In this document: positions 6,483 to 44,284 of the stretch, in pieces | How positions within the stretch are numbered: position 1 is the first letter of the stretch | How the letters are laid out: each line of letters begins with the position of its first letter | Source: a virus | DNA length: 64,000 nucleotides | Strand: one strand, 5' to 3' | IMG/VR virus record: IMGVR_UViG_3300000956_000001 | Location: 18,630-82,629 of that record | Program-made: the position numbers and the translations under genes | Notes under the pieces: generated by a model | The model's input: the letters and a program-made list of their open reading frames with translations, nothing else | Told to the model about the DNA's origin: nothing | Databases searched by the model: none

Positions 6483-6517
6483 AGGACTTGTGTGGTTCTG
6501 GCGTTACTGTACGCGGA

Positions 6518-6976
6518 TTAGTACGGCCATTCCTGAGCGCCGACCTGTGCGACCGTTGAAGCTTCCTTCACGGCAGAGAGGTACTTGAAGTACCCACCCA
6601 GTTCGTTAAGGCGAGCAACATGCGCGCGGTGGTTGTACTCCACCGACTTCACCTGAGCGTTGATAGCGTCACGCCGCGCCATGGCGTCGAGCCGGAGCCG
6701 GTTGAGATCCACCAGTTCCTGGCTGTGTGCGTAGGCGAGCTTGATGTGACGCTCGAACTCCGTCGGACGCATCTCCGGATTGTTGAGCGACTCGTAGACG
6801 AGGATGTCCTGGCGCTTCCGCTCAATGTCGGCATCCAGGTTCCGCGTCTCGGTCTCGAAGTTTGCCTGCGTACGGTAGAGATCCGCGAGCTGCGAGGTAA
6901 GCTGCTCCGCCTCAATCCAGGTGCGATGGACTCCGAGCTTGTCTTCCGCGTACGAGATTGCCCTGTTGCTTCCCAT
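6518..6976 (-). CDS. hypothetical coiled-coil protein
   Basis: 152 aa; a promoter immediately upstream implies a leaderless mRNA. Confidence 0.7.
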   Translation of the reverse strand: MGSNRAISYAEDKLGVHRTWIEAEQLTSQLADLYRTQANFETETRNLDADIERKRQDILVYESLNNPEMRPTEFERHIKLAYAHSQELVDLNRLRLDAMARRDAINAQVKSVEYNHRAHVARLNELGGYFKYLSAVKEASTVAQVGAQEWPY

Positions 6977-6982
6977 GCGCCT

Positions 6983-7012
6983 ATCCTAGATCGCAGGATA
7001 CCGGCATGTCAA
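6983..7012 (-). promoter_or_regulatory. sigma70/HrdB-type promoter
   Basis: TTGACA-18-TAGGAT on the minus strand; predicted start site coincides with ATG 6976. Confidence 0.65.
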
Positions 7013-7055
7013 CCTATCGCCACGAAAAGCATGTTATCGGCGCGGCTCGGCTACG

Positions 7056-8308: not shown

Positions 8309-8543
8309 CGTACTCCCCAGGGATTGACTTGATGAAGAAGATCTCTTCGATGCGAGTGACGTGCATGCCTTCATGTGTTGCCCACTCGCGAATGTTCTCG
8401 TAGTTCAGAGCATCCATTACAATGCTGTGATGAGCGCCCGCTCGGTCCGTGCACGTAGGCGAGAAGGCGCACGCACCAGCCTTTTTATCGTCAGGGCTGT
8501 GCATGACTGGCGGTAGCAGCTTGAATGTCACGATGAAATGCAT
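8091..8543 (-). CDS. hypothetical protein
   Basis: Starts at the recombinase stop; the 3' part overlaps the next gene. Confidence 0.5.
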   Translation of the reverse strand: MHFIVTFKLLPPVMHSPDDKKAGACAFSPTCTDRAGAHHSIVMDALNYENIREWATHEGMHVTRIEEIFFIKSIPGEYDVPVSGGQLGVDGREADGGSTRLSSAHADTTFDLSPATGPLVEYPITGICSGFNAAREVEEDRARRRVSSGD

Positions 8544-9385
8544 TACTTGTTTCCACTCTCGCGCATCTCATCGAACGTCATGCCGATGTAGCGCATTGTC
8601 GTGTTGACGTCAGCGTGACCGAGCCATCGCTGAAGAAGTGTGATGTCTCTTGTTTGCTTGTACAGAACCGTCGCGAATGTCGCGCGCAGGTCATGACTAG
8701 CAACTGGACGAGATATGCCAGCCCTGACGCCCAGCTCCGTAATGAATGATCGCGCACCACGGTCACTGTAGTTAATCAGTCGCTCACGTCCGGAAATCTG
8801 AACGGCGATGATCTGCGGTGCCAGGAACGTGAAAGCTCGATTCGTCACCGGGATGACTCGAAGCTTCTGCCCCTTACCCCACACGCTGATCGATAGTCCC
8901 GAAAGATCGATGTGACTATCTTTCAGCTCTAGAGCTTCATGCATGCGAAGTCCCTCGCACCCGAGTAATGCGACAAGTGCTCGCTTCTCGTCAGTGTCGC
9001 ATGCAGCGAGCATCTTGTTGAGATCATGTTCGCGATTCGGAAGGGGGTGCGCCTCTGCGGTTGGAACGGCTGGAAGCTTGTAACGCTTCAGGACGTCGCC
9101 CTCAAACCCCAGGTATTCCTTCAATGCCAGGATGCTCGCCTTGCGTCGACGAATCGTCATCGGAGCCAACTCGATATCCGTCGACAGCTTCAGCCATGTC
9201 GCTGCCAGCCTCGGCAGGTCCTCCACCTGAAAGGACTTGACCCCCAATTCCTTGAAGAGCATCTTGATATCGCTGGAGTACGCCTTCACTGTGTGCACCG
9301 ACCGGGAGAACTGAACGTCGGACAACCAAAGTCGGAAGCCCTCGATATCCTCGGTCGTCAGAGTCGTCACCTGTGGCATAGTCAT
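8543..9385 (-). CDS. tyrosine recombinase (XerC/D-like integrase family)
   Basis: SAM-like N-terminal domain (S.HTVKAY.SD) and complete catalytic set: GLRMHEAL, GKGQKLR, HDLRATFAT, LGHADVNTTMRY. Confidence 0.93.
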   Translation of the reverse strand: MTMPQVTTLTTEDIEGFRLWLSDVQFSRSVHTVKAYSSDIKMLFKELGVKSFQVEDLPRLAATWLKLSTDIELAPMTIRRRKASILALKEYLGFEGDVLKRYKLPAVPTAEAHPLPNREHDLNKMLAACDTDEKRALVALLGCEGLRMHEALELKDSHIDLSGLSISVWGKGQKLRVIPVTNRAFTFLAPQIIAVQISGRERLINYSDRGARSFITELGVRAGISRPVASHDLRATFATVLYKQTRDITLLQRWLGHADVNTTMRYIGMTFDEMRESGNK

Positions 9386-26879: not shown

Positions 26880-28049
26880 CTCGTGCCGCTACATGTGCCT
26901 GACGGACTGTTACGCTTCACAGGCTTCCACTCAGGCTAGCCATAGAGGCCGTGCCGACTCGTACGGCGACCGGTTCCCCTTGCTGCTTGTGGTGCTCCCT
27001 TGGTTGTAACCCGACTTGGATGCGTACCTCGGGATTGCGCCTCCACCAGTCCGTCAGGACTTGTCTTGCCACATAGCCAATACCCCGCAGTGGGCATTGA
27101 TGGGCTGACCAATCAGAGTCAGAGGTTTGATCAACACACTGACTAAACGTGACTGGTCCGCAGGTGTGTCTACTTGCTAGCTCGCCAGGGTGACGCCAGT
27201 CAAGGCGCCGCTTTGCGCAGGTAGCCGCCAACTGGTCAGCCCGAGGGTTGCATCACGCTGGTGTAATGCGCTGACACTTCAACCTAAACAGGCCCTACCC
27301 GTCTGCAATAGTCGGTGCACGCCTGCCGTTTGTCGCTGGCCCGTTCGGGGTCCAGCCCAGGTGGTCTGCCCATTTCCCAGTTTTTTCGTTGGCCCTGACT
27401 AAGGCCGGTTCATCCTTCCTGTTCTCGGACGTTTCCGTCTCCGAATACAGGGGTCCAACCAGACGCCTTGATCAGGGCCGTACGCGTGATGCAACCTTCG
27501 CGCTAACCAGGTGCTCGTCTACCGGCTAACCGTTCCGTTGTGCGATGCGTGATGGTGCCTGTAGCCCGCTAGGATCGACGCTGACGACCGTTTGTGGCGG
27601 TTGCTAGGGTGGGTAACCCCCGTGCGGTGTAACGCGCTACGGGCGATCCTAGCGGGCTTTGTGCAGTGTTACTGTGCGGACTCGACCAGTCACGTTTGGT
27701 AACCTCACGTGACAGAGGTAAGCGCGGCAGGATTCCGGCCTGTCGTTCTCAGGACTGCTGGACTCCGGGGGTCGCAATGACCCATACTCCGGTTTTCCCA
27801 GGCGGAACCCTGCCGCTGGTTGGACCCATCGTGAGTCAGTCACGTAGCGTTGCGTCGAGTGCGTGCGGGACCTAACCGATGATAGCGCGGGAGCTATGTC
27901 GATCAGTACGGACGCACTGGGAGGCGCGGCTTGATGGCTGGCGTTGATGTGTCCGCTGACGGGACATCGGCTGGGAAAGGTGGGTAACCCTGACCGATGT
28001 ACCGCCAGCGCACACATCACACTGTGTTGTTAGGCAGCGTGATGGTGCC
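26880..28049. ncRNA. candidate large structured non-coding RNA(s)
   Basis: No credible ORF. Many long perfect helices: 26898-909/27047-058, 27102-111/27233-242, 27246-258/27484-496, 27391-398/27472-479, 27563-577/27644-658, 27724-731/27809-816. Confidence 0.65.
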
Positions 28050-28086
28050 CCTGGACGCCTGATCCTGCATGGGCCAGGCGTCCAGG
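28050..28086. terminator. terminator-like hairpin
   Basis: 12-bp stem CCTGGACGCCTG/CAGGCGTCCAGG downstream of the 371-aa gene; the T-rich tail is on the + side. Confidence 0.65.
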
Positions 28087-28105
28087 TTTGTTGCCGTGGT
28101 GCGGA

Positions 28106-29221
28106 CTAGGCGACCTTGCGAGCGCCGCCCACGCCGCCATCCTGGGCGGGCACGATGCCTTCCAGGTTGAACTTGGGGCTGGACAGGGCGGCCGTGATGG
28201 CACCCGAGCTGGCGTTGCCGTCCGGGTACTCTTCCGTGCGAGTCTTCGCAATCTGGCCCGTCTTCAAGAAGGTGCCGACCGGCACGCTCGCGAAGACCTC
28301 CTGGATGTGCGACTTCACGCTGCGCTTCGGACCCGTGTAGGCGTCACGCGTACCCGTGCTGGTGGCGGTACCGGCTGCCTTCGGCGCACGAACCTTCGCG
28401 ACGTTGCCGCCACGACCGTGCGCGATCTTGGCCGCGTTCTTCACGACGACGTGGACCTCGGGCGCCTTCGGCTCGCGGGCCGCGTACGCCTCGTCCGTCT
28501 CGTCGGTCTTCTTGCCCTCGGTCGCCCAGGAGTTGTGGTCGACCTCGTACGCCTGCCACGCCTTGACCTCGGGGGCCAGCGACTTCGACAGCTCCTGGAC
28601 CTTCGCGGTCCAGTCGGGGCTCACGCCCTCGCCCGGGGTCAGCATGGAAACCGCCAGGTAGAACGCGGAGACCTTCTCGACGTGCGCCTGCGTCGGATCG
28701 ACCGGAGGCTTGACGACCTGCTCGCGCTGGGCGGTTGTGGTCTTGACCTCGGCACCGAGATCCATGTAGACCTTCGCCTTGGAGGCGTTCAGCTCCTTGG
28801 TGAGCGAGGTCTTCATCCCGGTTTCGAGGAAGTCGCGGGCCTTCTTCTTCAAGCCCGGGGTCGGCAGGGCCGCGTAGGCCAGCTTGACCGGTGCGACGTT
28901 CACCGTGGGGACGTCGCCGGTCGTCTGGTCGCGCGCCTCGACGGCCTCGTTGACCTTCGCCTCGAACTCGGCGAACAGCTTCGCGTGCTCCGCCTCGGTG
29001 GCAGCCTGCTCGGCGGCCAGCTCCTCGGGGGTCTTCGTCGGGCCGGTCGCGGTGTTGGCGTCCGGCGTCTCGGGGGCCTGCGGGGTTTCCAGGTTTTCGA
29101 CCGGAGTCGCAACCTGCTCGGGCTGCGACTCGGTGGCCATGCCCGGAAGGCTGGACATCTGCTCGGTGGGCTGCGTGACCTCTTCGGCCGAAGCCGTGGT
29201 CACGTCATCCTGGTCACGCAT
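28106..29221 (-). CDS. highly expressed protein with C-terminal winged-helix-like domain
   Basis: Extreme GC3 bias, GAGGAG RBS, two consensus promoters upstream; C-terminal SVKSHIQEVF...TGQIAK..TEEYPD...SSGAITAAL. Confidence 0.8.
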   Translation of the reverse strand: MRDQDDVTTASAEEVTQPTEQMSSLPGMATESQPEQVATPVENLETPQAPETPDANTATGPTKTPEELAAEQAATEAEHAKLFAEFEAKVNEAVEARDQTTGDVPTVNVAPVKLAYAALPTPGLKKKARDFLETGMKTSLTKELNASKAKVYMDLGAEVKTTTAQREQVVKPPVDPTQAHVEKVSAFYLAVSMLTPGEGVSPDWTAKVQELSKSLAPEVKAWQAYEVDHNSWATEGKKTDETDEAYAAREPKAPEVHVVVKNAAKIAHGRGGNVAKVRAPKAAGTATSTGTRDAYTGPKRSVKSHIQEVFASVPVGTFLKTGQIAKTRTEEYPDGNASSGAITAALSSPKFNLEGIVPAQDGGVGGARKVA

Positions 29222-30193: not shown

Positions 30194-30416
30194 CGTGTCC
30201 TAGTGGATAGATTGCCCGTTGGCACATATGGCATCTGACCTGCTGTTATGCTAGACCAGGCGCCGGTAATGTCCGAATTGCCAGATTTTACCGTCTTGCC
30301 CGACTAAGAGGGCTTTGCGTAGTGAACGCCACCTTTGAGTGAGAGTGCCTCACTTGTGACGACATGCACGTAGATGCCCTGTGCAGGTGCAATTGCCTCT
30401 TTGCAGTGTATACAAG

Positions 30417-30809
30417 TCATTTGTCCGTTTTGTCCTTCTTGCGGGTCTTTCTGGGCTTAGTTGACTTTGCGTGCTGTAGCCGCTGCAATGTGTTCTTTTC
30501 GATCTCAATCATCATCAAAGCGGCATTTCGGACTTCCGGGGTAAAGGGTCCAGTGTACCCCATAGTGAACAGAACGGCTTTTGCAGCCATATCGTTCTGT
30601 TCGCGGCGAGAGAGAGACTTCTGCACCGGAGCCGAACTTTTGCGCTCAGACTTCCCATCCTTGGATGCCTCACCACGGATGATGACAACTCGGCTACAGG
30701 GGAGCGAATCGTCACCATCCGTGGTAAGGCGGACAACGATACCAATTGGGGCAGAGCTAGACTCGCGCACCAATTCGTAGTATCTCGCCTTATCAGGATC
30801 AAAGAGCAT
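30417..30809 (-). CDS. hypothetical protein
   Basis: AAAGGTG RBS before MLFDPD. Confidence 0.65.
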   Translation of the reverse strand: MLFDPDKARYYELVRESSSAPIGIVVRLTTDGDDSLPCSRVVIIRGEASKDGKSERKSSAPVQKSLSRREQNDMAAKAVLFTMGYTGPFTPEVRNAALMMIEIEKNTLQRLQHAKSTKPRKTRKKDKTDK

Positions 30810-30905
30810 ATCGCGCACCTTTCAGGTTTTACCAGTCATGTGGCACTAACAGGGTAAAACATTACAGTTGCACCATATCAGGGCATATGACTCAAAAAGG
30901 ACATA

Positions 30906-31175
30906 CTACCTGGTAACTACTTCCATGACCTCAGTCTGGCGAGCGATCTCAAATTCGGCAATGTTGCGCTTTCCAGGCGTACCGGGCGAAGCGGACATAC
31001 ACTGCGTAACGGCTTCAAGTGCATCCTCGTACGTATCCCAGGAACACTTCCGATTCCAGTACAATTCCCACCAGATGCCACTTCCGTCCCCATCCAGGTA
31101 ATTCACCCGGAAGCAGACATCAGGTTGATACTTGCGCAAAACGCGCAACTCGGGCTGTTCAGACATCTCGGACAT
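30906..31175 (-). CDS. hypothetical protein (cassette A)
   Basis: AAGGTGGG RBS; ORF exactly fills IR pair A. Confidence 0.7.
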   Translation of the reverse strand: MSEMSEQPELRVLRKYQPDVCFRVNYLDGDGSGIWWELYWNRKCSWDTYEDALEAVTQCMSASPGTPGKRNIAEFEIARQTEVMEVVTR

Positions 31176-31306
31176 AACCCACCTTCCCAGACTTTCGGGG
31201 TAGACGAGACATATGCCCCCATAAGGTACAACTGTGATGTTAATCTGGAATCGTCATAGATGCACCTGATGCGCGCATTCCGGAGGTTACAGACTAAACG
31301 GACATA

Positions 31307-31396
31307 CTACTTAGATGCGTAGTAACCAGTCACGATGACTGCAAATACGACCCAAGCGACGATGAAGCCAAACCAGAACTTCTGGCCATTTGTCAT
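31307..31396 (-). CDS. small membrane peptide (cassette B)
   Basis: MTNGQKFWFGFIVAWVVFAVIVTGYYASK. Confidence 0.55.
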   Translation of the reverse strand: MTNGQKFWFGFIVAWVVFAVIVTGYYASK

Positions 31397-31470
31397 CTTG
31401 TCACCACAAACAACACGAAGGCCGCCCATAGTACCATCAGTACAAAGGCGGCAAAAAGAAGCTTAATCAC
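31393..31470 (-). CDS. small membrane peptide (cassette B)
   Basis: MIKLLFAAFVLMVLWAAFVLFVVTR; GAGGAGG RBS. Confidence 0.55.
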   Translation of the reverse strand: MIKLLFAAFVLMVLWAAFVLFVVTR

Positions 31471-32013
31471 TCATTCCTCCTCAAAACGGACAACCTTCGC
31501 GCCGCCGTCATCTGTCTCCATTACCGTAGGAAGCAACAGATGGCCACGAACCGTAATGCTCTGGTCATCCTTGCCCTTGTTGCGCAACTGCCACTTTTTG
31601 TTAGCAACGCGACAAGAAGGGCACCTGCACCCATACATGGAGTAAGACAGGTAATTGCCGTGACTCGTCCAACTCGGTTCGAAACGGATAAACCAGTCCC
31701 AGCACCAGGTTTCGATGCATTTCGGGCAGATACTCTGGTAATCCGCATCGGCGTCATGAGCACACGTAGTGCACACATCTGTCGAGACGATGACATTACG
31801 CCCGTAAGGCGCGATAATGCGCCTTCTGGGCGCATTCACCGAAGGGGGACGAACGTCCTCATTCAGTGCAATGTGCACGATCTGCCCAACTTGGACATTA
31901 CGCCAGTCAATCTGGCGATTCACTCCGCCGATGACAAACTGGTCGTACTCGCCCTTCACGTCAGATTTCGGGGCAATCGTCTGGTATTGAACAGATGACG
32001 ATCCTTTTCCCAT
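31471..32013 (-). CDS. zinc-binding hypothetical protein (cassette B)
   Basis: CTTC..CPKC and HG..SY..YGCRCPSCR motifs. Confidence 0.75.
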   Translation of the reverse strand: MGKGSSSVQYQTIAPKSDVKGEYDQFVIGGVNRQIDWRNVQVGQIVHIALNEDVRPPSVNAPRRRIIAPYGRNVIVSTDVCTTCAHDADADYQSICPKCIETWCWDWFIRFEPSWTSHGNYLSYSMYGCRCPSCRVANKKWQLRNKGKDDQSITVRGHLLLPTVMETDDGGAKVVRFEEE

Positions 32014-32124
32014 TTTACACCTTTACCCTTTATCAGGCATCAGGTGCATTTATGACGATTCCAGATTATTAGTGCCAACTACACTGAACCCACTATTAGG
32101 GGCAGAACGGACATCGCAGACATG

Positions 32125-32643
32125 TCAGTCTTTCGTGTCGTACCAGACATGACCGTGCTCATCTACGTGAGCTGGCTCATCCAGGACATGCTGTGCATCA
32201 GCGTTGCATTGCGTCTCATATGGTGACATTGCACCACACAGTGACGTTTGGGGCGCTTCGACACATTTGGACACGGGAGTCATGCGGTAGCTTACGTGCA
32301 TCAATACGAGGATTTCGCACGCATTGCGCAACTGCCGCAGAAGGGGCAACTGTTCCGAAACGTAAAACCGTCGCAGAGTGTCATCATCGTCCTCATTCAT
32401 GCGATACGACACATAGTCGACACCGCTCTCATTTGTGACGATTCGGACATACCCGACGATGTGCTCCATCTGGTTTTGGTCCGACTCGTGCCAGATGCAC
32501 GTATCAGACCAAACGCCCGCCCATGGGCCCTCTTGTACGGTTACGATCGGCTTTGCCCAGATTGCACCGTAACGCGTCATTTGACGGACTGCGGTATCTT
32601 TGTCGTCAATGACCCTGTTGTGCGAGTTGTGCGAGTTGTCCAT
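32125..32643 (-). CDS. hypothetical protein (cassette C)
   Basis: AAAGGTGGAG RBS; C-terminal C..C...H...H...W. Confidence 0.7.
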   Translation of the reverse strand: MDNSHNSHNRVIDDKDTAVRQMTRYGAIWAKPIVTVQEGPWAGVWSDTCIWHESDQNQMEHIVGYVRIVTNESGVDYVSYRMNEDDDDTLRRFYVSEQLPLLRQLRNACEILVLMHVSYRMTPVSKCVEAPQTSLCGAMSPYETQCNADAQHVLDEPAHVDEHGHVWYDTKD

Positions 32644-32705
32644 CTCTCCACCTTTTTCAGGTTTTAGCACTGGATGCCCTACTAAGGGACGAGACGCGCG
32701 GTTGC

Positions 32706-32966
32706 CTACGGTTGTACCTTTCGTCCGCCCTGTGGCGATTTGTCGTCGTCTGCTACCTTGTGTCCGTATTGGATCACAAAGTCGTAGATGTCCGATTTAA
32801 TCAGCGTGCGGCTAAGCAGTAGGTGCGCCAGAATTGCACCTCTTCCGGGCCTTTTGTCCTGATCAGGGTATTCTGGGGTGATTGCGTTACAAATCTGCGC
32901 AACCGTCATGAAGTGCCCGTATTCGTGACCTTTGAACGCATTGAGAATGTGGTCCCGGATTGTCAT
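32706..32966 (-). CDS. small winged-helix-like protein (cassette C)
   Basis: Similar to the C-terminus of 28106-29221. Confidence 0.7.
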   Translation of the reverse strand: MTIRDHILNAFKGHEYGHFMTVAQICNAITPEYPDQDKRPGRGAILAHLLLSRTLIKSDIYDFVIQYGHKVADDDKSPQGGRKVQP

Positions 32967-33334
32967 CAGATGTGCGGTCCGTCCAGATGGTCGAAGATGT
33001 CCGATTTGAGGTAAACCGCCATCATCAGGACCGATTGGAGTAGTCCACCCACGTTCTGGCCGTGATCGTCCATTGATCCCTGTTCGGCACCACTGTCCAC
33101 GATGAGGCTAATTGCCTGCTCTGCGGCCTTTTCGTAGTTAAGGTGCATGTCTCCGGTTTGGACCAATTCGCCCAGTTCGTTCGGATCAAGAAGATTGTCC
33201 GGAAGAGGCTGATTGTCCAGATCGCGCCGAAGGACCAACAACGCACCATATGCGGTGAAAATGGCCTTTTCGATGTCATCGCGGAGAAGCTCACGTTCTG
33301 ATGCGGTAAGACGCGAGTTGCGTGTGTTTCCCAT
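32966..33334 (-). CDS. hypothetical protein (cassette C)
   Basis: AAGGTGGGCAAA-ATG start MGNTRN. Confidence 0.7.
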   Translation of the reverse strand: MGNTRNSRLTASERELLRDDIEKAIFTAYGALLVLRRDLDNQPLPDNLLDPNELGELVQTGDMHLNYEKAAEQAISLIVDSGAEQGSMDDHGQNVGGLLQSVLMMAVYLKSDIFDHLDGPHI

Positions 33335-33544
33335 TTTGCCCACCTTGGCGACTAAGTGTGAAATGCGCACCTCGTCCCATAGTAGGGCATCCAGTACCAT
33401 TCTTGACAGAATATGACGTTACCTTACATATTTTGACATATGCCAGTTATGTCCGATTCTGCCCCTAATGGTGGGTTCAGTGTGATTCATACGGCTTGTT
33501 AGTAACATCCCAAATCGTCTGCTATGCACCTGATGTCTGATTTG

Positions 33545-33742
33545 CTAAACAGTGACCGGTTTGCCCGTTTTCAGGTCAATCATCTCGGTTTGTCGTGTTA
33601 GAGGTGCAACTGTCCGCTTCGGGGGATTCTTCCCATTTACCCGCTGCGTGAATGTCTGACCGCATGTGTCACACATTCTGCGGATATGGGTACCTGTGCC
33701 CGGTAGGTGAGTCACCTCCCTATTGCAGTGCATGCGTACCAT
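33545..33742 (-). CDS. small zinc-ribbon-like protein (cassette D)
   Basis: C...CDTC; lies inside IR D. Confidence 0.55.
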   Translation of the reverse strand: MVRMHCNREVTHLPGTGTHIRRMCDTCGQTFTQRVNGKNPPKRTVAPLTRQTEMIDLKTGKPVTV

Positions 33743-33788
33743 TCTCGCCTACCCGTGCTAGTTGGTGCCGTTTGTCCAGTTTGTGACG

Positions 33789-33983
33789 TTACTTGGTGAT
33801 ACCTTTCGGTATCCACCGAGGTGTGGTGCAAACGTAGCATTCGCCACACTTGTACCACGTGTCCGAGTATCCGCAATCCTGGTCGAAATCCCACCATCCA
33901 GGCACTTCGCCCAGTTTGATGGACTTGTCCGTTTTGCGGTTCCTGACAACGTTTCTGATAGCATTGCGCAGATTGATACCCAT
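33789..33983 (-). CDS. small protein (cassette D)
   Basis: AAAGGTGG RBS before MGINLR; C...CGEC.VC. Confidence 0.65.
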   Translation of the reverse strand: MGINLRNAIRNVVRNRKTDKSIKLGEVPGWWDFDQDCGYSDTWYKCGECYVCTTPRWIPKGITK

Positions 33984-34401
33984 TGTACTGATTCCACCTT
34001 TTGTCCGTGTTGCCCGTTTTAAGGGGTTTGTGAACACCAGGTGCATAGCAGACGATTTGGGATGTTGCAGACTGAATCACCATTTACGTGCCAGTTGTCG
34101 CACATTATGCTGGTTTGTCCGTTAGTTCACAATCTGGATAACTAAGGACGTTATCCAGAGAATGACTAGAACTACCCAGATTGCTAGGGCTATCCCGGTG
34201 TGTGGCTTCATGTCCGTTTTGGTCCTTATGTTACCGAGTGTACAGTTTGCGACCCTTGCGCACCAGGTACACATACATACCGTTAGCCCGCTGAAAACGC
34301 AAATGCGTGACTTTGGGTCCGATGAGGTATCCACCCCAGTTGGTCCATTGGCACGTCATGCACTCATTGTCTGCGATGTCCGAAATGCTAGACATGTGCG
34401 A

Positions 34402-34842
34402 TCAGAGCGCCTTGCACACGTTCTGGGCGAACCATTCCCATGCGTCCCGTTGCCAGGCGACAGGTCCGAAGTGGTACGTCCAGTGCGGAAGGTACGGTTC
34501 GGCCATCTCTGCCACGATTCCGGTAAAGCTGTGCGCGTATGCACCGATACCGATCAGATCGCCCGGCATGTCGATAATGCCCTTGGATGCCCGATATGAG
34601 GGGTTGTATTCCGAGACGACCCAAAAGACCAGTGCGGTATTGATTGCCCGCATTGCACCTCTTGGGTCGGTTGCGTGGAAGAGCTGGAATGCCCGTCCCA
34701 TGCGACCTTCGCACAGTGCGTGATACATTGCGGCATTTTCCCGCATTGTCGCACCTGAGTGCATTTCCAGGATTACGCCTTTTGGCTGGTTCGTCCCGTT
34801 GGCACCGTTCGCGAAGGTTTCCTTGATTGTCACAGTTGCCAT
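34402..34842 (-). CDS. hypothetical protein (cassette E)
   Basis: AAAGGTGGG RBS before MATVT. Confidence 0.7.
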   Translation of the reverse strand: MATVTIKETFANGANGTNQPKGVILEMHSGATMRENAAMYHALCEGRMGRAFQLFHATDPRGAMRAINTALVFWVVSEYNPSYRASKGIIDMPGDLIGIGAYAHSFTGIVAEMAEPYLPHWTYHFGPVAWQRDAWEWFAQNVCKAL

Positions 34843-34971
34843 GATTCCCACCTTTTGTGTGTCTTGCCCGTTTTAAGGACAACTGGCACATAAAAGGTGA
34901 TTCAGTCTGCTATGGTTCAAACGCCCTACTAGGTGCCTGATGAGCTGAATGTGCTGGATGTCTGGGTTGTG

Positions 34972-35358
34972 CTAGTCCATCCAGAGTGCGAAGTTTCCGT
35001 CGATAACGCCATAAACAGCCTGGTGTGTACGGTTCTGTCCGTATTTTTCCAGTTTGTCGTATTCGAGCGTTACGACCCAGTCTGAGTCGTCACAGTGCCT
35101 TAGGCACCCATAACCGCACTTATCATCGTGAATGTGCCGTCCGTTACCATCTGTGACGTTTAGCACCCTTACGGACGTGATGTCGTAAAGGGGCCAGTTG
35201 TCACGAAAGTACTGAACGGGCCACATGTCCGAATACTCCGGATCGCACCGAAGTTCCAGACTGTACACATTGCGCTGAATGAGGTCTTTGCGGTAATGTT
35301 CCAGAATGTCCCCGAAAGGTGCATCTGGCCGCTCCGCCACCGTCCGCGTAGCCTGCAT
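34972..35358 (-). CDS. hypothetical protein (cassette F)
   Basis: 128 aa inside IR F. Confidence 0.7.
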   Translation of the reverse strand: MQATRTVAERPDAPFGDILEHYRKDLIQRNVYSLELRCDPEYSDMWPVQYFRDNWPLYDITSVRVLNVTDGNGRHIHDDKCGYGCLRHCDDSDWVVTLEYDKLEKYGQNRTHQAVYGVIDGNFALWMD

Positions 35359-35371
35359 CGGTTTGTCCGTT

Positions 35372-35788
35372 TCAGCCCGTGATGGTGTTGATGTCTTTGT
35401 TGCCCATCACGCGCACACTGCGTGCAAGGTCCGAAAGGAGCTGCTTGACCGTTGCGACCGGAAAGCCCTCATTGAACGGACTGTCCATCAATTTCCGATT
35501 GTCCGAGATGAACCATTCGTCCAACATGACCCCGTAATCCCAGAATGTCCGGTTATACACCGGGCCGCTCGAAGTGTGACCGTATGTCCGGCCGTAAGGG
35601 AACATGTAGAGAGTGTCCCTTTCGTCCGTAATGTACGTGAAGTCGCCGATCGTCACAAAAGCCCGATCGATGACAGTTTGCGAGTCACATCCCATTCCAG
35701 CCAGATTGGCCGCAATGTAGACTTCGTCCGCATAGTCACGCTTCATGGTGCTAAGTGCGCTATGCGTCGGGATGGTCGACTTGTCCAT
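35372..35788 (-). CDS. hypothetical protein (cassette F)
   Basis: AAAGGTGGGCAAA-ATG. Confidence 0.7.
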   Translation of the reverse strand: MDKSTIPTHSALSTMKRDYADEVYIAANLAGMGCDSQTVIDRAFVTIGDFTYITDERDTLYMFPYGRTYGHTSSGPVYNRTFWDYGVMLDEWFISDNRKLMDSPFNEGFPVATVKQLLSDLARSVRVMGNKDINTITG

Positions 35789-35964
35789 TTTGCCCACCTT
35801 TGATGATGTCTGATCTAGTTTGCCCGATCAGGCACCTAGTAGGGCGTTTGAACCATATAAGCCGTATGGGTAGTTTCGCGCTGAATGACCTATTAGTGGT
35901 CGAATGTCTGTATTACCTGTATTGCGTGTAATGCCAGTTTTTACCGTGATGTCCGACTAAGATG

Positions 35965-36321
35965 CTAGTCGACCCCGTTTTCCGATCCGTCGTAAACGCG
36001 CGAGATGTCCTGCATGTCCTCAATGGACTCGATGACCTGCATGCGTGCCATGTCGCGCTTGTTGGTTTTGATCCATTCCACGCAGTACTTCACGGTTTCG
36101 CCGTTGTCGACCCAGATTTCGTAAATGTCCGTTGCGAGTTGGTCTGGGTAGGCGATGGCGATTGCAGCCAAGAACGCCGCATGTGTCACCTTGTAGGCGT
36201 TTCCACCCGCAATGTCACCATCCGGGCTGAATGCCACAGATGAGTGGACCTGTCGCATAAGTTCCGCGAAGTCGGTCTTGCGCGTTTCGCCACCAATGAC
36301 CGGAATGTCCAGTTCTCGCAT
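35965..36321 (-). CDS. hypothetical protein (cassette G)
   Basis: AAGGTGGG RBS before MRELD. Confidence 0.7.
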   Translation of the reverse strand: MRELDIPVIGGETRKTDFAELMRQVHSSVAFSPDGDIAGGNAYKVTHAAFLAAIAIAYPDQLATDIYEIWVDNGETVKYCVEWIKTNKRDMARMQVIESIEDMQDISRVYDGSENGVD

Positions 36322-36570
36322 GATGCCCACCTTGTGTGTGATGTCCGAATTGCCAGTTTTAAGGCATTCGACCACTAATGGGCCATTCAGAGCGAAATGC
36401 CCCCTAACATTCCAGAATCACCCGCTTCGGCCCGTGTAGAGCCGTAATGTCTGTCCGGTCCCGAAATGAGGGGACCTAAGCACATTTGGGTGATTCTGGA
36501 TGCCTTGGGGGTAGTATGCGCTGAATGCCCTATTAGATGACGGTTGGGGTGGGTGAGTCCGTTTTGCCTG

Positions 36571-37065
36571 TTAGATGCCGTATCCGTTGTCTGTCGCGAT
36601 TGTGTCGATCAGTTCGACAAAGGTACAAAGCCCTTTTTGGTAGTTCTGGTACATCTTGCGGATTGCGTCACCGTTCGGACCGTCTTCGCCCGTTTTGCGC
36701 AACCAGAACCCAATTGCCATACGAACAGACCATTCGTACCAATAGTGCGAACTGTGCACATGGTCCGTGATGTCCGTCTGTTCCCACAATTCGTACATCT
36801 GGTCCCACTCGTTACCTTCGTCCCAGATTTCCTCGGATGAGACGTAAAGGGCCAATGCGCCCGTTTCGCACCAGATGTTGTACTGCTCCCGATCCATGAC
36901 GTTCTGGATGATTTTGCCCTCATCGCCCATATGCCAGACGGTTCGGGTGCCTTTGTCCAGAACGTAACGGAATGTCCCCAAGGGACCGTCTTGTCCGATT
37001 TGGCCCAGAATGACCAATTCCTTGACGAATGAGACGGGAGGAGTCATAAGACCCGTGTTGCCCAT
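36571..37065 (-). CDS. hypothetical protein (cassette I)
   Basis: AAAGGTGGGCAAA-ATG start MGNTG. Confidence 0.7.
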   Translation of the reverse strand: MGNTGLMTPPVSFVKELVILGQIGQDGPLGTFRYVLDKGTRTVWHMGDEGKIIQNVMDREQYNIWCETGALALYVSSEEIWDEGNEWDQMYELWEQTDITDHVHSSHYWYEWSVRMAIGFWLRKTGEDGPNGDAIRKMYQNYQKGLCTFVELIDTIATDNGYGI

Positions 37066-37216
37066 TTTGCCCACCTTTTCCCTACTAAGTGCGGTTTTGT
37101 CTAGATAAGTCCGTTTTGTACTCATCTACCCTAACCGTCACCTAATGAGGCATTCAGTGCATACCTACCGGTTCGTCATGATGTGCCCTATTAGGGCCTG
37201 GATGTCTGTTTTCGTG

Positions 37217-37606
37217 TCAGTTGTACTTTTCGTCCGTGACGTCGCAAATCAGCGGGTTCTCACCGTTCGTCCCGATTGCCCATACCTGAGCACGATACGG
37301 GTCAGTATTGGTGATTACGCGCCCGAATGTCGCATCTGACTTGTATTCGCCATACACGTGGATTTCGGTGACTTCGACCGTTTCGCACGTCTTGACCAGT
37401 TCTTCCAGTTTGTCCAAATTGACCGCTACGTACCCACATGCCCAGCATGACTGACACACCCGGATAAGTCCCATTGTGCCGGAAATGACTGGAATGCCCG
37501 CGAAGTCCGTTTTGAACTCTTCGAGGCAAAGGCCGCATTCGTCGTGGTAAGTCCGAATTCCGTCTTCCGCGTTGAAATCGACGGAAGTGACCGTAATGAC
37601 TGTCAT
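37217..37606 (-). CDS. zinc-binding hypothetical protein (cassette J)
   Basis: AAAGGTGGG RBS; CGLC...CQSC. Confidence 0.7.
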   Translation of the reverse strand: MTVITVTSVDFNAEDGIRTYHDECGLCLEEFKTDFAGIPVISGTMGLIRVCQSCWACGYVAVNLDKLEELVKTCETVEVTEIHVYGEYKSDATFGRVITNTDPYRAQVWAIGTNGENPLICDVTDEKYN

Positions 37607-38701
37607 GATAGCTGTGCCCACCTTTAGGTTGTTTTGCACTGGAATGTCGCTGATGTCCGTTTCGGTCTTTCACAAGATGGACATTCCAGGCCCTAATGGG
37701 GCACACCATGCCGAACCATCGGCAATCTATCCACTATGGACAAGTCAAACAACAATGTGACACAAGCCCCTAAAGGCGCCTAAACCGCATAATTGCAACT
37801 GATACACCCTTATATGGGGCAATTTCAGTCTAAAACGGACATTTCCCAGTTTTACCGTCTTTGCCCACTTTAGTACCGTCTACCCACCTTTGTCGCGTTT
37901 GCCCGTCTTTGGTGCCGTCTTGTCGTACTTGTCGGCTACGCGGCATCTGGGGGCCTTTGCCCGGGATGTCCGTTTCAGTGCGGTTTAGTTGTCAATCAAC
38001 CCGTGTCGCCAAGCGTGGCGCCTAGCGGCCGTGCTGTCGTGCGGGTGGTGCCCCACTAGCCTAGCACCCCCCTAGGCGCAGAGCTCGGACAAATCGGACT
38101 TATCACGATAAGAACGCCCGCCTGAAATGTCCGTTCTGGCCCACCTTGCCCCGGTATGACATCGGCCGAAAGTACGATATAGGTCTGACCGTTCGGGGGA
38201 TGGACGAACTAATGCGGCATCTCGGCTACGCCCGCCCATATCGGCCCAGAATCGGACATAAAGACGGCCGGATAAGTCACGATAAATCGTCTTAAAACGG
38301 ACAGGGACATATCACCTCAAACCGTCTCAAAACGGGCACGGACATACCGCCTGATAGCACCTCAAAACGGACGTGATGGCCCTAACCCCGGTTGACCTGC
38401 GAAAACGCCGTAGGATCGCCGTAGGGGCGCTAGAATTGGCCGATGCATACCCGTGCCCCCAACGGGCGTGTAGGCGCGTCAGCGGCGGCGCTAGGGGCCT
38501 TAAATGGCCGATTCCGCTAGCCCCCACGGGTGGGCGGGTAGGTGGGCAAACGGGGGTGTAGTAGGCCAGATGGGGCAGTGTCGTGATATATCATCTTAAA
38601 TCGGACATCTGACGATATAGCGCTGAATGGTACGAGATTGGGGGAAAGAGGGGAATGTCCGATTTATCATCTTATGTTGTAAGGGGGCGTAAGATAGGGG
38701 G

Positions 38702-38927
38702 CTATGCGCGCAAGTCCACTGTGGACAGATGGGATTCATGATCTTCTATATTCAAGATCATGAGAGCGTGACGATCTTGAATATAGAAGATCGTAAGAGT
38801 GTGACGATCTTCTATATTCAAGATCGTCTATCATCACTGATCTTAGATATTCAAGATCATGAGAGTGTGACGATCTTGAATATAGAAGATCATGAATGAG
38901 ATCTGTCCACTGTGGACTCACGCATAG
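38702..38927. repeat. palindromic array of five 20-bp sites GATCTT-N8-AAGATC at 33-bp period
   Basis: Units start at 38740, 38773, 38806, 38839 and 38872; flanked by GTCCACTGTGGAC (38714, 38905) and CTATGCG/CGCATAG. Confidence 0.92.
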
Positions 38928-39512
38928 ACGATCATGGATGGCTCAGCTACGGGCAAGTCGGACATTGGGGACTTAGGTGGAGATTGTGGGGGATAGGGTG
39001 ATATTGAGGTGAAAAGTCCTAGGTTTCGGGAATCTGGGGCTATTTGTGTATAAGGGGTATCTGGGGGACAAGTCGGAAATTACATATCATATGGCATATA
39101 TCGCTCTTTGTCGTTGATCTGGTAAATGTCCTGGTTTGGGTGAAAATGGCGTTTTCGGTAGACTTGTCGCTTGTGTGCAGAATGCCCGCATAAAGGCGAC
39201 ATATACGGTATATACGTCATGGGCCTTATATCGGACTTGTGCCCTATGACTGATAATGACCTTTTATTACACTTTGTCCGTTTAGGGCCCGGCTAGACTC
39301 GGACAAGTCGGACATGTCGCATATAGGCGCTCATCTGGGGCAAATGCGACAGGGGCGGGCAAAGGGTGCCGATAACTTATATTATCGGCAGACGGATATA
39401 TCGTGACAAAGTAGGACAAATCGGACTTGTCCACCATGCCCGAGTTGGGGGGTATGAGAAAATTGTCGGGGGGGTGCGCGCGAGCGCCCTCTGTGCCCTG
39501 TCGCTACTTATG

Positions 39513-39603
39513 AAATTTTTACGAGGGCATGATCAACATAAATCTGGCTATACCATCTGTCACCTCCCGATACACACAAAATTTTTACGAGGGCATGATC
39601 AAC
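39513..39603. repeat. 25-bp direct repeat AAATTTTTACGAGGGCATGATCAAC x2
   Basis: 39513-39537 and 39579-39603 (66-bp period). Confidence 0.85.
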
Positions 39604-39769
39604 TATACCTGTCAAATCTTTGTCCACCTGCCCAGAAGGCGAAACCAGCTCAGCCACCTAGGATTCGCACTGAAGTACGTAACGCCACGTAATGAGTAAC
39701 GGAGACGATAGGGGGTATCGGTGACGGTCCCATGATCGTTTGCCACGAAACCTAAATGGCCTGTGACCT

Positions 39770-40290
39770 GCATATATATAGGGTTTAGGGGTTTAGGGGG
39801 TTTTAATTTTAAAAATCTAATATACCTAGCTCTGACTTGGTTTTCGTCACTGTCCGTAGACGCTGGGTGGTGGGGGAGCATCTTGGGGTATAGACCCGTA
39901 TAAGATGGTTTGCCAATCTGGTTGGGTGTGGGGGCTTATAGGCGAAAAAAACCCCGGAACCCCTAAACCCCTATTTGATCTATGTTTTCGCAGGTCAAAA
40001 CCCCTCCCGAAACCTCCGCCGAAACCCCCCCCGAAACCCCCCTATGATCATCTAGACAGCGTCCCCGAAACCGATAACGTCCCCGAAACCCCTCGGCAAA
40101 CGGAAAAAACGGACAGAGCGATGGCCCGGTCCGTGAGATCTGCAGTGTCTCGCGCGGCCGGGCCATCGTCTGAAATATGTAGTTATCAGGGGTTGTGGGG
40201 ACGATCCCCGAAACCTACGAAACCTATCCTAGCACTACGGTTTCGGGGATTCGGGGGTTTTGGATTGCGTCCCCGAAACCCCCGTGATCG
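39770..40290. repeat. candidate replication origin: CCGAAACC/CCTAAACC iterons plus AT-rich tract
   Basis: About a dozen (C)CC(G/T)AAACC copies in both orientations; TTTTAATTTTAAAAATCTAATATA near 39801; downstream of the primase/helicase operon. Confidence 0.55.
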
Positions 40291-43399: not shown

Positions 43400-44284
43400 T
43401 CACTTCCAGTAATTCGTAGTAGTAAGCGCGTCGAGAGCGTCGCGCGGCGTCAGAGCCTGTGAACCATAGTTGGTACGAAAGTCGAGGAAGAACGTCGGAT
43501 CCAGGGGATTCTTGAGGTTCCGACCCAGAGGGAGCCGACAAAGGTTCCCGAAGCCCTTCTTCTCCAAGGCAACCTGCTTGGGGAAGACTTCGACCGTCAT
43601 GCACTGGTAGCTGAGTTCCTCGTCGATGGTTCCGTTGTGAGCGTTGACGATCTTGTGCTTAAAGAAGTTATTGCCCCTACTCGGGGCAAAACAGCCGAGA
43701 TTGTCCAGAATCATCTGTGCGCCATCGCGAACATCTTTGGCTGGCATGAGGCCAGTGAAGCCGTACACATGCACACCCTTGTTGCCGGTGTACGTGGCAG
43801 CAACTGGGATCTCAAGCTCGCGAGATACTGCGCTGGCGAGCTTCTCGGCAAGCATGCGCATCTGCGTCTTGAGGTACTGCCGCTGAAGTCCCAGACTCCG
43901 ATTGAGCCAGTCTTCGCGCGGGTTGGTCGGGAAGAAGTTCTTGTACACGCCGTCCGAGTCACAGTCGACCGGCAGTACCAGCTGTTCGTACGTCTCTGGA
44001 TGCTGAGGGTCCGGCTTGTCCAGATCGATATCAAAGACGAACAGCTTGCACTGGTCATCCTTGTTGAGCAGATAGTGACCGTAAGTTGCATCACTGTTGA
44101 TATGCGCCAACAGATGCTTCATACCGAAACCACTGTCCGGAGTGATGACTGCCGTTCCGTCCGCAGTCCGATCCACGGCTGGCTGGTATGCGCCATCAGC
44201 TCGCTGCGTTGCGCGCACATCAGGTCGTGCGATGAAATTCTTAGCGAACAGCTTTGCGATTTCTTTCTGCTGATCGATGTCCAT
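43400..44284 (-). CDS. archaeo-eukaryotic primase (AEP/prim-pol catalytic domain)
   Basis: GHYLL...CKLFVFDID, TGNKGVHVY, EVFPKQ, GFGNLCRLPL. Confidence 0.85.
   Translation of the reverse strand: MDIDQQKEIAKLFAKNFIARPDVRATQRADGAYQPAVDRTADGTAVITPDSGFGMKHLLAHINSDATYGHYLLNKDDQCKLFVFDIDLDKPDPQHPETYEQLVLPVDCDSDGVYKNFFPTNPREDWLNRSLGLQRQYLKTQMRMLAEKLASAVSRELEIPVAATYTGNKGVHVYGFTGLMPAKDVRDGAQMILDNLGCFAPSRGNNFFKHKIVNAHNGTIDEELSYQCMTVEVFPKQVALEKKGFGNLCRLPLGRNLKNPLDPTFFLDFRTNYGSQALTPRDALDALTTTNYWK

Follow-up and report, generated by a model that had tools for sequence, protein, structure and literature searches.

Layout of the array

The DNA analysed here (the window) is a stretch of 64,000 nucleotides from the 82.6-kb genome of an uncultured soil phage of actinobacteria. 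Between window positions 30201 and 37736, minus-strand genes are arranged in 11 loops, each of which is closed by its own helix. One to three small ORFan genes are found in 10 of the 11 loops, and one loop (c3) is without a gene. The operon contains ~18 such genes, and its spacers consist of back-to-back helix arms. Partner arms are located 0.1 to 1.4 kb apart on opposite sides of the gene or genes, and the helices span 24 to 46 bp overall, or 31 to 46 bp for gene-bearing loops. Linkers between neighbouring helices are 0 to 16 nucleotides in length, loop c9 is nested inside c8, and a 16-bp outer helix surrounds all 11 loops. An initial annotation of this DNA had noted that the genes all face one way; this is correct, with the amendment that they lie on the minus strand. 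It also placed the arms outside of ORFs and ribosome-binding sites, which we confirmed. The ribosome-binding sites are always in loops, and a strong site is shared by the ORFs in ten loops.

A non-coding region at 37.75-39.9 kb precedes the early genes, a 371-aa gene, and genes for an AAA-ATPase and CobT. The 7.5-kb array is most likely the first leftward (early) operon of the phage, positioned just after this 2.2-kb non-coding control region. The same gene order is found in phages with a published repeat region in this neighbourhood, and a non-coding region likewise precedes these genes in the phage Adgers. However, the published repeat region is gene-free, whereas the array described here encloses genes. 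Promoter-like and terminator-like sites in the array are not in excess of shuffle expectation, and a search for U-tracts after the arms found none.

In the following, arms are given as 5' arm / 3' arm in the sense of the RNA, and all features are on the minus strand. The 5' arm of the outer helix (37721-37736) is a perfect 16-nucleotide complement of the 3' arm (30201-30216); an earlier estimate of 21 bp is approached (~21 nucleotides) only if flanking mismatches are included. This 5' arm is two nucleotides upstream of the 5' arm of c1, and a sigma-70-like promoter match (30193-30165) directly follows the 3' arm. The outer helix brackets the array, with the non-coding control region on one side and this promoter-like site on the other. 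Loop c1 (37169-37718; arms 37718-37685 / 37202-37169) holds g1 (37217-37606, 129 aa), and c2 (36513-37165; 46-bp arms 37165-37120 / 36558-36513) holds g2 (36571-37065, 164 aa), both of which are ORFans. The geneless c3 (36400-36511) has a private 24-bp stem (36511-36488 / 36423-36400) around a 64-nucleotide interior that folds as two small hairpins. Loop c4 (35874-36397; arms 36397-36365 / 35906-35874) contains g4 (35965-36321, 118 aa), which has a homologue in the related genome L037.

Loop c5 (34911-35857) is closed by perfect 31-bp arms (35857-35827 / 34941-34911) and contains g5a (35372-35788) and g5b (34972-35358). Loop c6 (34067-34910; arms 34910-34878 / 34099-34067) contains g6 (34402-34842) and possibly g6b (34231-34395), and c7 (33504-34066; arms 34066-34033 / 33537-33504) contains g7a (33789-33983) and g7b (33545-33742). 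Both have orthologous helices in a second related genome, L039, with compensatory changes in that of c6. Loop c8 (32077-33487; arms 33487-33456 / 32108-32077) holds g8b (32125-32643), a gene with a homologue in L039, and also the nested c9 (32665-33399; arms 33399-33365 / 32699-32665) with g9a (32966-33334) and g9b (32706-32966). The final loops are c10 (31241-32068; arms 32068-32037 / 31272-31241), with g10a (31471-32013) and g10b (31307-31429), and c11 (30858-31241; arms 31241-31205 / 30894-30858), with g11 (30906-31175). Gene g12 (30417-30809, 130 aa) resides inside the outer helix with no loop of its own, and its product is 57% identical to an L039 protein. Three repeats singled out initially were all recovered, namely the perfect 31-nucleotide repeat of c5 (34911-34941 / 35827-35857), a 31/32 match closing c10 (31241-31272 / 32037-32068), and the repeat of c7, which extends over 33 nucleotides at 97% (33504-33536 / 34034-34066).

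Specificity of the helices

Under a strict blastn criterion, eight pairs are detected in the array versus none in each of 200 dinucleotide shuffles, and a chance origin of the helices is excluded. Only one further long-range pair of comparable quality is present in the remainder of the 64-kb window. Duplex energies are approximately -49 to -64 kcal/mol for the arms alone, and reach -75 kcal/mol with flanks. For each of the 10 arms, in either direction, no other arm pairs better than the cognate one, and the mean duplex energy is -56.6 kcal/mol for cognate versus -18.4 kcal/mol for non-cognate combinations. Adjacent arms form imperfect local palindromes and pair weakly (-10 to -38 kcal/mol). 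The minimum free energy fold of the full 7581-nucleotide sense RNA includes all 11 helices, with the outer one, and has no crossings, so the folding check proposed at the outset shows that the helices can coexist in a single planar structure of the sense transcript.

The arms of the window and of L039 all form a single sequence family with a shared conserved core, which is absent from the L037 arms. The proposal that each arm pair is distinct therefore holds only in part.

In a static count of mismatches within the helices, the sense strand is not favoured (26 G·U vs 19 A·C, p = 0.37). Because complementarity is symmetric, an antisense RNA or a single-stranded DNA would adopt the fold just as readily. 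The helices could be imagined to act in plus-strand RNA, such as a late read-through transcript, which might fold into long duplexes or shut off the early mRNAs by pairing with them. Plus-strand duplex energies are indeed similar to those of the sense strand, and the C·A mismatch that recurs at the centre of sense-strand helices would be a G·U wobble in plus-strand RNA. We nevertheless regard an antisense role as extremely improbable. No standout plus-strand promoter-like site enters the array, single changes between orthologous helices produce a sense G·U four times and a sense A·C zero times, and private arms would be unneeded because an antisense RNA would pair with the mRNA along its whole length.

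Conservation and turnover among relatives

Covariation was assessed in the two genomes with orthologous arms, the window and L039. In the interior of four orthologous helices, 87 pairs are unchanged and 17 exhibit double changes that preserve pairing (15 to Watson-Crick, two to G·U). Single changes include four between Watson-Crick and G·U pairs versus none from Watson-Crick to A·C. Arm and spacer segments share 70-84% DNA identity between the two genomes, the neighbouring 371-aa gene shares 64%, and most loop contents do not align. In L037, whose neighbouring protein is 34% identical, there are three abutting loops and an outer helix, with arm sequences unrelated to those of the window; the g4 homologue of this genome is likewise enclosed in a loop, by unrelated arms. 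Because of the 17 double changes in L039 and the same layout with unrelated arms in L037, the comparison indicates that selection acts on pairing itself and not on sequence, as had been supposed from the window.

A selfish or neutral origin should be weighed against these data. The arms could be halves of a multiplied palindromic spacer element (REP/MITE-like) into which genes were inserted later, with the complementarity inherited, kept by concerted evolution, and devoid of a function of its own. The single sequence family of the window and L039 arms, the local palindromes formed by adjacent arms, and the geneless c3, which resembles an "empty" element, would all fit such an origin. However, we consider it very unlikely: neutral arms should decay, yet the arms are the best-conserved DNA of the region, compensated changes number 17 versus few uncompensated ones, L037 keeps the layout despite complete turnover of arm sequence, and the phage has no transposase. 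A MITE or transposon with terminal inverted repeats was also rejected, given that neither a Y1 transposase nor a resolvase is present and that the arms covary privately and do not converge on a consensus.

Gene content differs among relatives both at the level of loops and within them. In L039, the c8 orthologue encloses only the g8b homologue, and c9 is absent. Loop c11 is absent from L039 and from run X12, where position 30862 runs straight into the c10 arm and the whole of c11 is missing. The presence or absence of c9 and c11 differs exactly at helix bases. In run X12, g5a is replaced or absent inside c5, and g9b alone is deleted inside c9. The array sequence was found in no RNA run. The suggestion that cassettes are gained and lost as modules is borne out for c9 and c11, but two of the four turnover events seen are inside loops. 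The cultured Gordonia phages Adgers, ASerpRocky and Woes, the three relatives checked, have the same gene order and no gene-enclosing helices, so helices are not needed for an early operon of this type.

Differences located exactly at helix bases are also what might be expected if the repeats were sites of recombination or folding in DNA that render cassettes movable or invertible. Possible routes are integron- or PeSL-like exchange, hairpin-promoted deletion during replication, and inversion by a tyrosine recombinase or by homologous recombination, and gene conversion between arms would then account for the matched changes. A tyrosine recombinase is encoded at window positions 8543-9385, the conserved core common to the arms could be recognized by a protein, G·U is not favoured over A·C, and Logan contigs do not discriminate the orientation of c5. 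Even so, a DNA-level role appears quite unlikely. The recombinase, the sole one of its type, is a generic Xer-like protein of 280 aa that is encoded 21 kb away and scores 69 bits against TIGR02249, compared with an integron integrase cut-off of 265 bits, and no resolvase or Y1 transposase is found in the phage. Recombinase sites need a conserved binding sequence and a short identical overlap, and the private complementarity along 30-46 bp is unlike these needs; in addition, the core is missing from L037 arms, and half of the turnover falls inside loops. With regard to an inverton or shufflon, which was tested on contigs, all 17 gene-bearing loops of the window, L039 and L037 are in operon orientation, no resolvase-type invertase is present, and no strand-change joints were seen in the contigs examined.

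Two known cassette systems share features with the array. Integron arrays also comprise co-oriented, promoterless small-gene cassettes of unknown function that are gained and lost as units, and their inverted repeats are likewise imperfect, with a core that is conserved and a base that is characteristically unpaired. In integrons, every cassette has at its 3' end a locally formed attC hairpin, which depends on an adjacent IntI. The core shared by the arms is presumably unlike the R and L boxes of attC. No IntI, attI or Pc was identified in the phage, and the arms are split around genes and do not form local attC hairpins, so the initial comparison to integrons does not extend to membership. 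PeSL cassettes of T4-type phages likewise have structured spacer repeats between non-essential ORFans in a hypervariable region, and are linked to the insertion, deletion and replacement of genes (PMC2839356). PeSLs, however, are local promoter-plus-terminator stem-loops that are mutually similar and recombine as direct repeats (PMC2839356), whereas elements of the array are inverted pairs private to a cassette, with no promoter or terminator excess and no U-tracts after the arms.

Possible processing of the early transcript

The closest analogue of the phage loops is found in the stalks formed by leader and trailer sequences of 16S and 23S rRNAs in rrn operons. In both cases, complementary flanks separated by hundreds to thousands of nucleotides form a helix of at least 20 bp, several units are present per transcript, which in the phage is a predicted one, and pairing is kept by covariation. 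Unlike rRNA stalks, the array encloses mRNAs with ORFs and ribosome-binding sites rather than stable non-coding RNA, it has 11 abutting units (one of them nested) within an outer helix in a phage operon, and its cleavage is putative.

Based on these sequence features, we lean towards the view that the helices form in the sense RNA and serve, in the manner of rRNA processing stalks, as sites at which host RNase III cuts the transcript into mRNAs with clamped ends. In the minus-strand transcript, each arm would pair with its distant partner and close the 11 loops inside the outer helix. RNase III is known to process rRNA stalks and the early RNA of T7, and its substrate is double-stranded RNA that spans at least about two helical turns. 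Neither an RNase III nor a dsRNA-binding domain is encoded by the phage, and the enzyme of the host would cleave the helices. Cleavage would divide the long RNA into messages of one or two cistrons, each with its 5' and 3' ends still base-paired. These paired ends might keep out both 3' exonucleases and 5'-end-dependent RNase E/J, and each ribosome-binding site would remain free in the loop. We infer each of these steps, that is, formation of the RNA helices, cutting by RNase III, and stabilization of the messages. An earlier idea, that the products are circularized mini-mRNAs, found no support, as neither an RNA ligase nor RtcB is encoded by the phage and the ends left by RNase III do not resemble a nick.

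The early RNase III sites of T7 and T3 also partition a polycistronic early RNA between cistrons. Their processed duplex ends stabilize early messages, and the sites are local hairpins in spacers. In the array, by contrast, cognate partners are distant and adjacent arms pair only weakly; each helix is built from both flanks of a gene, and would therefore join the two ends of a single message. Pairing of mRNA segments hundreds of nucleotides apart is also a feature of cellular RNase III targets. In B. subtilis, duplexes between distant segments of one mRNA are cut by RNase III (PMC11780869), and pairing of the 5' and 3' UTRs of icaR in S. aureus makes an RNase III substrate (PMC3868564). These duplexes are single and mostly regulatory or destabilizing, and that of icaR covers the ribosome-binding site (PMC11780869, PMC3868564), whereas the phage helices form a systematic array in which no ribosome-binding site is covered.

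At the centre of several helices there is a conserved mismatch, either C·A or U·U. A single central mismatch is present in about half of the helices, is kept between orthologues of c6 and c8, and divides a ~32-bp helix into two ~15-bp runs. This mismatch may blunt RNase III, in which case the helices could form in the sense RNA and stay uncut, as clamps or insulators that make the cistrons separate folding domains with free ribosome-binding sites and hide the spacers from Rho and single-strand nucleases. The structural and covariation evidence is common to this possibility and to RNase III processing, and the consistent location of ribosome-binding sites within loops agrees with it. Still, we judge it unlikely that the helices remain intact. 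Stems of 31-46 bp are far longer than insulation requires, and single mismatches generally do not protect long duplex RNA from RNase III. Protection by mismatches is doubtful also in view of the perfect 31 bp of c5 and of c7, which in the window deviates by G·U wobbles only.

In this reading of the array, a gene with its two arms is a self-contained promoterless unit, and the gain or loss of a whole loop can therefore leave the adjacent ones undisturbed. More speculatively, a lineage of actinobacterial phages might build its early operon from stem-closed modules, in which the arms direct excision of messages with clamped ends and, at the DNA level, allow a module to be cleanly gained or lost as a whole. 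Such modules would resemble the integron cassette system in function, but would be based on RNA structure and use no integrase, and they could reflect a general and undescribed principle of phage gene organization.

In the literature, we found no publications that describe a gene-enclosing helix layout of this kind for phage mRNAs. If the helices work as proposed, they would represent a new way of organizing a polycistronic message, and mRNAs would join rRNAs as systematic targets of long-range processing. Each cistron would carry its own processing and stabilizing clamp, and a gene could therefore enter or leave the operon with no need to re-tune those beside it. Early "host-takeover" regions are hypervariable, and such clamps would explain how these regions remain expressible despite rapid gene turnover. 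The layout would also provide a natural design for expressing several insulated genes in actinobacteria.

The helix array

Eleven helices (c1 to c11) are found in the RNA sense of the array, each formed by two complementary arms that lie on either side of the sequence they close. Around genes the helices are 31 to 46 bp long, and ten loops contain one to three small genes; c3, of 24 bp, closes the only gene-free loop (64 nt). Consecutive helices are separated by 0 to 16 nt, with zero linker at three junctions, and no two helices cross. Loop c9 is nested within c8, and an outer helix of 16 perfect base pairs (37736-37721 with 30216-30201) surrounds all eleven. Every repeat named in the initial annotation, which described abutting cassettes inside an outer inverted repeat, was recovered where it had been placed.

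Pairs that pass a strict criterion number eight in this region, versus none in 200 dinucleotide-preserving shuffles. The window's other 56 kb hold a single comparable long-range inverted repeat (27229-27258 / 27484-27513), which encloses 225 nt within an ORF-poor stretch of 1.2 kb. Arms by themselves form duplexes of about -49 to -64 kcal/mol, and the values reach down to -75 kcal/mol when flanks are included. The best partner of each 5' arm is its own 3' arm in ten of ten cases, in both directions, and mean duplex energy is -56.6 kcal/mol for cognate versus -18.4 kcal/mol for non-cognate arms. All eleven helices, and the outer one as well, are kept when the complete 7581-nt sense RNA is folded to minimum free energy.

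In the source sample, independent Logan contigs show 0 differences from the record sequence, and their only breaks fall at the perfect 31-bp repeat of c5 (34911-34941 / 35827-35857), as is expected for 31-mers. Which way round the 945 bp between the two repeat copies lie is not readable from these contigs, and the orientation in the record agrees with the ribosome-binding sites and the direction of the genes. An assembly artefact is ruled out by the identical independent contigs, together with the presence of the layout in a second sample and in relatives. Promoter-like and terminator-like sites in the spacers are no commoner than in shuffles, and the 3' arm of the outer helix runs directly into a promoter-like site (30193-30165).

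Conservation of pairing in relatives

The comparison rests on two informative related contigs, L039 and L037, and covariation in orthologous arms comes from two genomes, the window and L039. L039, a 7-kb contig from soil, encodes a version of the neighbouring 371-aa protein (28106-29221) that is 44% identical to that of the window, and it carries helices orthologous to c6, c7, c8 and c10. DNA identity to the window is 70 to 84% in spacer and arm segments and 64% in the neighbouring gene; most loop contents are unalignable, and where homology can be seen between the proteins they encode, identity is only about 36%. In the interior of the four orthologous helices, 87 pairs are unchanged, and 17 differ in both partners with pairing kept (15 as Watson-Crick, 2 as G·U). 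At about 20% divergence per arm position, chance would yield roughly 5 double hits, about 1.5 of them still pairing. These 17 double changes are of the compensatory kind that the initial annotation had proposed to look for. Single changes in the same helices comprise four Watson-Crick/G·U interconversions and none to A·C.

L037 is an IMG/VR contig with a neighbouring protein 34% identical to that of the window. It has three abutting loops and an outer helix, with arm sequences unlike those of the window, and one of its loops holds a homologue of the array gene g4. Because the double changes in L039 keep pairing and L037 has the layout with dissimilar arms, these comparisons indicate that the conserved property is pairing and layout, and not sequence.

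Each arm pair had been taken to be unique, which holds in part: all arms align to a common core, roughly CTGAAT-N4-CC-N-ATTAG-N-G-N4-GATG, and each pair owes its specificity to private positions interspersed among those of the core. In about half of the helices, one mismatch interrupts the centre, in the same column each time: C·A for c1, c2, c4 and c8, U·U for c6 and c11. It persists in the c6 and c8 orthologues of L039. The helices are possibly RNA clamps or insulators that are never cut, a role that this recurrent mismatch might serve.

The helices are absent from three cultured syntenic relatives, the Gordonia phages Adgers, ASerpRocky and Woes. Neither megablast of the region nor tblastn of g4 gave a match among cultured phages, and pattern scans of IMG/VR with arm motifs returned chance single matches only and no repeat chains. 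Among Logan contigs, the nearest homologues of the neighbouring protein comprise P0002 (79%), P0004 (58%), P0005-P0008, P0013 and P0016. Protein-guided scans by the 371-aa protein alone, by P0016 and by g12, a gene within the outer helix that has no loop of its own, found nothing. Helicase relatives L040 and L041 show no helix chain, and another relative, L038, has one composite long-range helix only. The L039 orthologue of g12 does not conserve a 26-bp hairpin that lies within the g12 coding sequence (30667-30730, minus strand), and the hairpin was rejected as a part of the system.

Cassette genes and genome setting

The source record is an 82,629-bp IMG/VR virus with direct terminal repeats from a soil metagenome, of which the window is bases 18630-82629. 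Coding-potential scoring places the genes of window positions 1-38000 on the minus strand. The gene order (non-coding region, small genes, 371-aa protein, AAA-ATPase, CobT) is identical to that of Adgers, ASerpRocky and Woes. This order, shared with Gordonia phages, and a WhiB-family gene located outside the window (G000:C1:12434-12622, 42 bits) suggest that the host is most likely an actinobacterium. A protein with a TOTE-type archaeo-eukaryotic primase domain (43400-44284, minus strand; PF22548, 51 bits) is encoded next to the helicase-primase gene.

With respect to transcription, the array is directly downstream of a gene-free, repeat-rich region of 2.2 kb (37.75-39.9 kb), and is therefore the first leftward operon, presumably early. 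Within this region (37750-39900), the motif GTCCGAYTTGTCC recurs, promoter-like segments are duplicated and palindromes form a phased block (38708-38923); the region is likely to be an early control region and/or an origin. Rfam searches on the palindromes at 38.7-38.9 kb gave sub-threshold miRNA-like matches and nothing more. A non-coding inverted-repeat region is found at the right genome end of GTE7, ReqiDocB7 (DocB7) and GordTnk2 (PMC4563357), and the region in the window is its counterpart. Just upstream of the outer helix, UGUUGUUUGACU (37743-37754, minus strand) bears a weak likeness to the E. coli boxA consensus, at 8 of 12 positions (PMC13753749), and a comparable arrangement, UUGAAU-N5-AUAGUG, stands at the matching place in L037.

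The cassette proteins are 40 to 180 amino acids long, matched no family when each was searched against Pfam and PHROGs, and have no similarity among themselves, so that they are not paralogues. Such features are typical of phage early ORFans. One of the cassette proteins, g9b (32706-32966), is similar to residues 301-346, the C-terminal domain, of the 371-aa protein (pairwise E = 2e-6), and Adgers gp101 also resembles g9b.

Arms are outside ORFs and ribosome-binding sites in every case. Cassette genes have in common an extended ribosome-binding site, AAGGTGGG, with 13 occurrences versus 1.5 expected, mostly within this operon. A very stable hairpin (27900-28105, minus strand; z = -7.25) just downstream of the 371-aa gene has the loop ACCCACCUUU, which is the exact complement of this shared site (AAAGGUGGG). 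As a candidate anti-RBS small RNA, the hairpin could act to switch off early translation. Another motif, AAACKGRCA, occurs 20 times versus 1.7 expected, is concentrated in the early region (30.4-40.1 kb), and often falls between a 5' arm and a ribosome-binding site. Three direct AAAACGGRC copies are spaced by 35 bp on the plus strand (38295-38372), and AAACKGRCA is present in the distant relative L037 too (around 5900-7050). This motif is probably a site for a conserved DNA- or RNA-binding protein.

Gene turnover and proposed RNA processing

Loop c9, arms included, is missing from L039, in which the c8 helix surrounds a homologue of g8b alone. In X12, a run of a second soil sample at about 90-95% identity, a contig passes from 30862 directly into the c10 arm; therefore, c11 is missing exactly at the helix base, and it is missing from L039 also. 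Gain and loss at arm boundaries, as first proposed, thus describes c9 and c11, which go as whole loops, but not the changes inside loops of X12, where g9b is gone, 32716-32967 being skipped, and where g5a has been either replaced or lost. Across these contigs, loops appear as units of gain and loss, yet gene turnover is not restricted to arm boundaries.

Whole-loop turnover, the core common to all arms and a tyrosine recombinase encoded at 8543-9385 (minus strand, 280 aa) would suit a role in DNA, through integron-like or PeSL-like exchange or through inversion. We regard such a role as improbable, however, as the recombinase is a generic Xer-like protein that is below every curated NCBIfam cut-off, far under that for integron integrases, and is encoded 21 kb away, and the phage has neither a resolvase nor a Y1 transposase. 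Moreover, 17 of the 17 gene-bearing loops across three genomes keep the operon orientation, and private pairing along the full length is unnecessary for recombinase sites. Strand-change joints and excised forms were absent from the Logan contigs examined, which carries little weight since contigs drop rare variants. A selfish palindromic element into whose loops genes were inserted could account for how the layout arose, but not for why it is maintained.

Selection for private complementarity over 30 to 46 bp requires a single-stranded state. Because the arms are in untranslated spacers of one co-oriented unit that lacks an excess of promoter-like or terminator-like sites and is bracketed by the outer helix, the sense transcript is the most plausible molecule in which the helices would act. 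Action in an antisense RNA is unlikely, and the mismatch census on the sense strand, 26 G·U versus 19 A·C (p = 0.37), is a static count that does not single out either strand. No RNA run was among those listed as carrying this stretch.

RNase III classically acts on duplex RNA of this length; it excises rRNAs from rrn stalks and separates the early messages of T7. Long-range intramolecular duplexes in mRNAs of B. subtilis are cut by RNase III (PMC11780869), as is a 5'-3' UTR duplex in icaR of S. aureus (PMC3868564). Given these precedents and helix lengths that fit its substrates, we propose, as the most likely mechanism, that host RNase III would cleave the early RNA, if the helices form in it, into mono- or dicistronic messages. 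Both ends of each message would stay base-paired, which may protect it from 5'-end-dependent and 3' exonucleolytic decay, and ribosome-binding sites would remain open within the loops. Searches of the phage genome found neither an RNase III nor a dsRNA-binding domain. The circularised mRNAs suggested in the initial annotation were rejected for want of support, as the phage has neither an RNA ligase nor RtcB.

The array may be likened to a series of rRNA processing stalks applied to mRNAs, and is similar to integron cassettes and to the PeSL cassettes of T4 (PMC2839356) in its modularity, but it lacks some of the defining features of each. For the genomes of Gordonia phages, tallies of repeats are given with the remark "roles unknown" (PMC4524720). 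In the literature searched, long-range RNase III duplexes are reported for cellular mRNAs, and we came upon no account of phage genes enclosed by chains of helices. The layout is unexpected, and it is directly testable.
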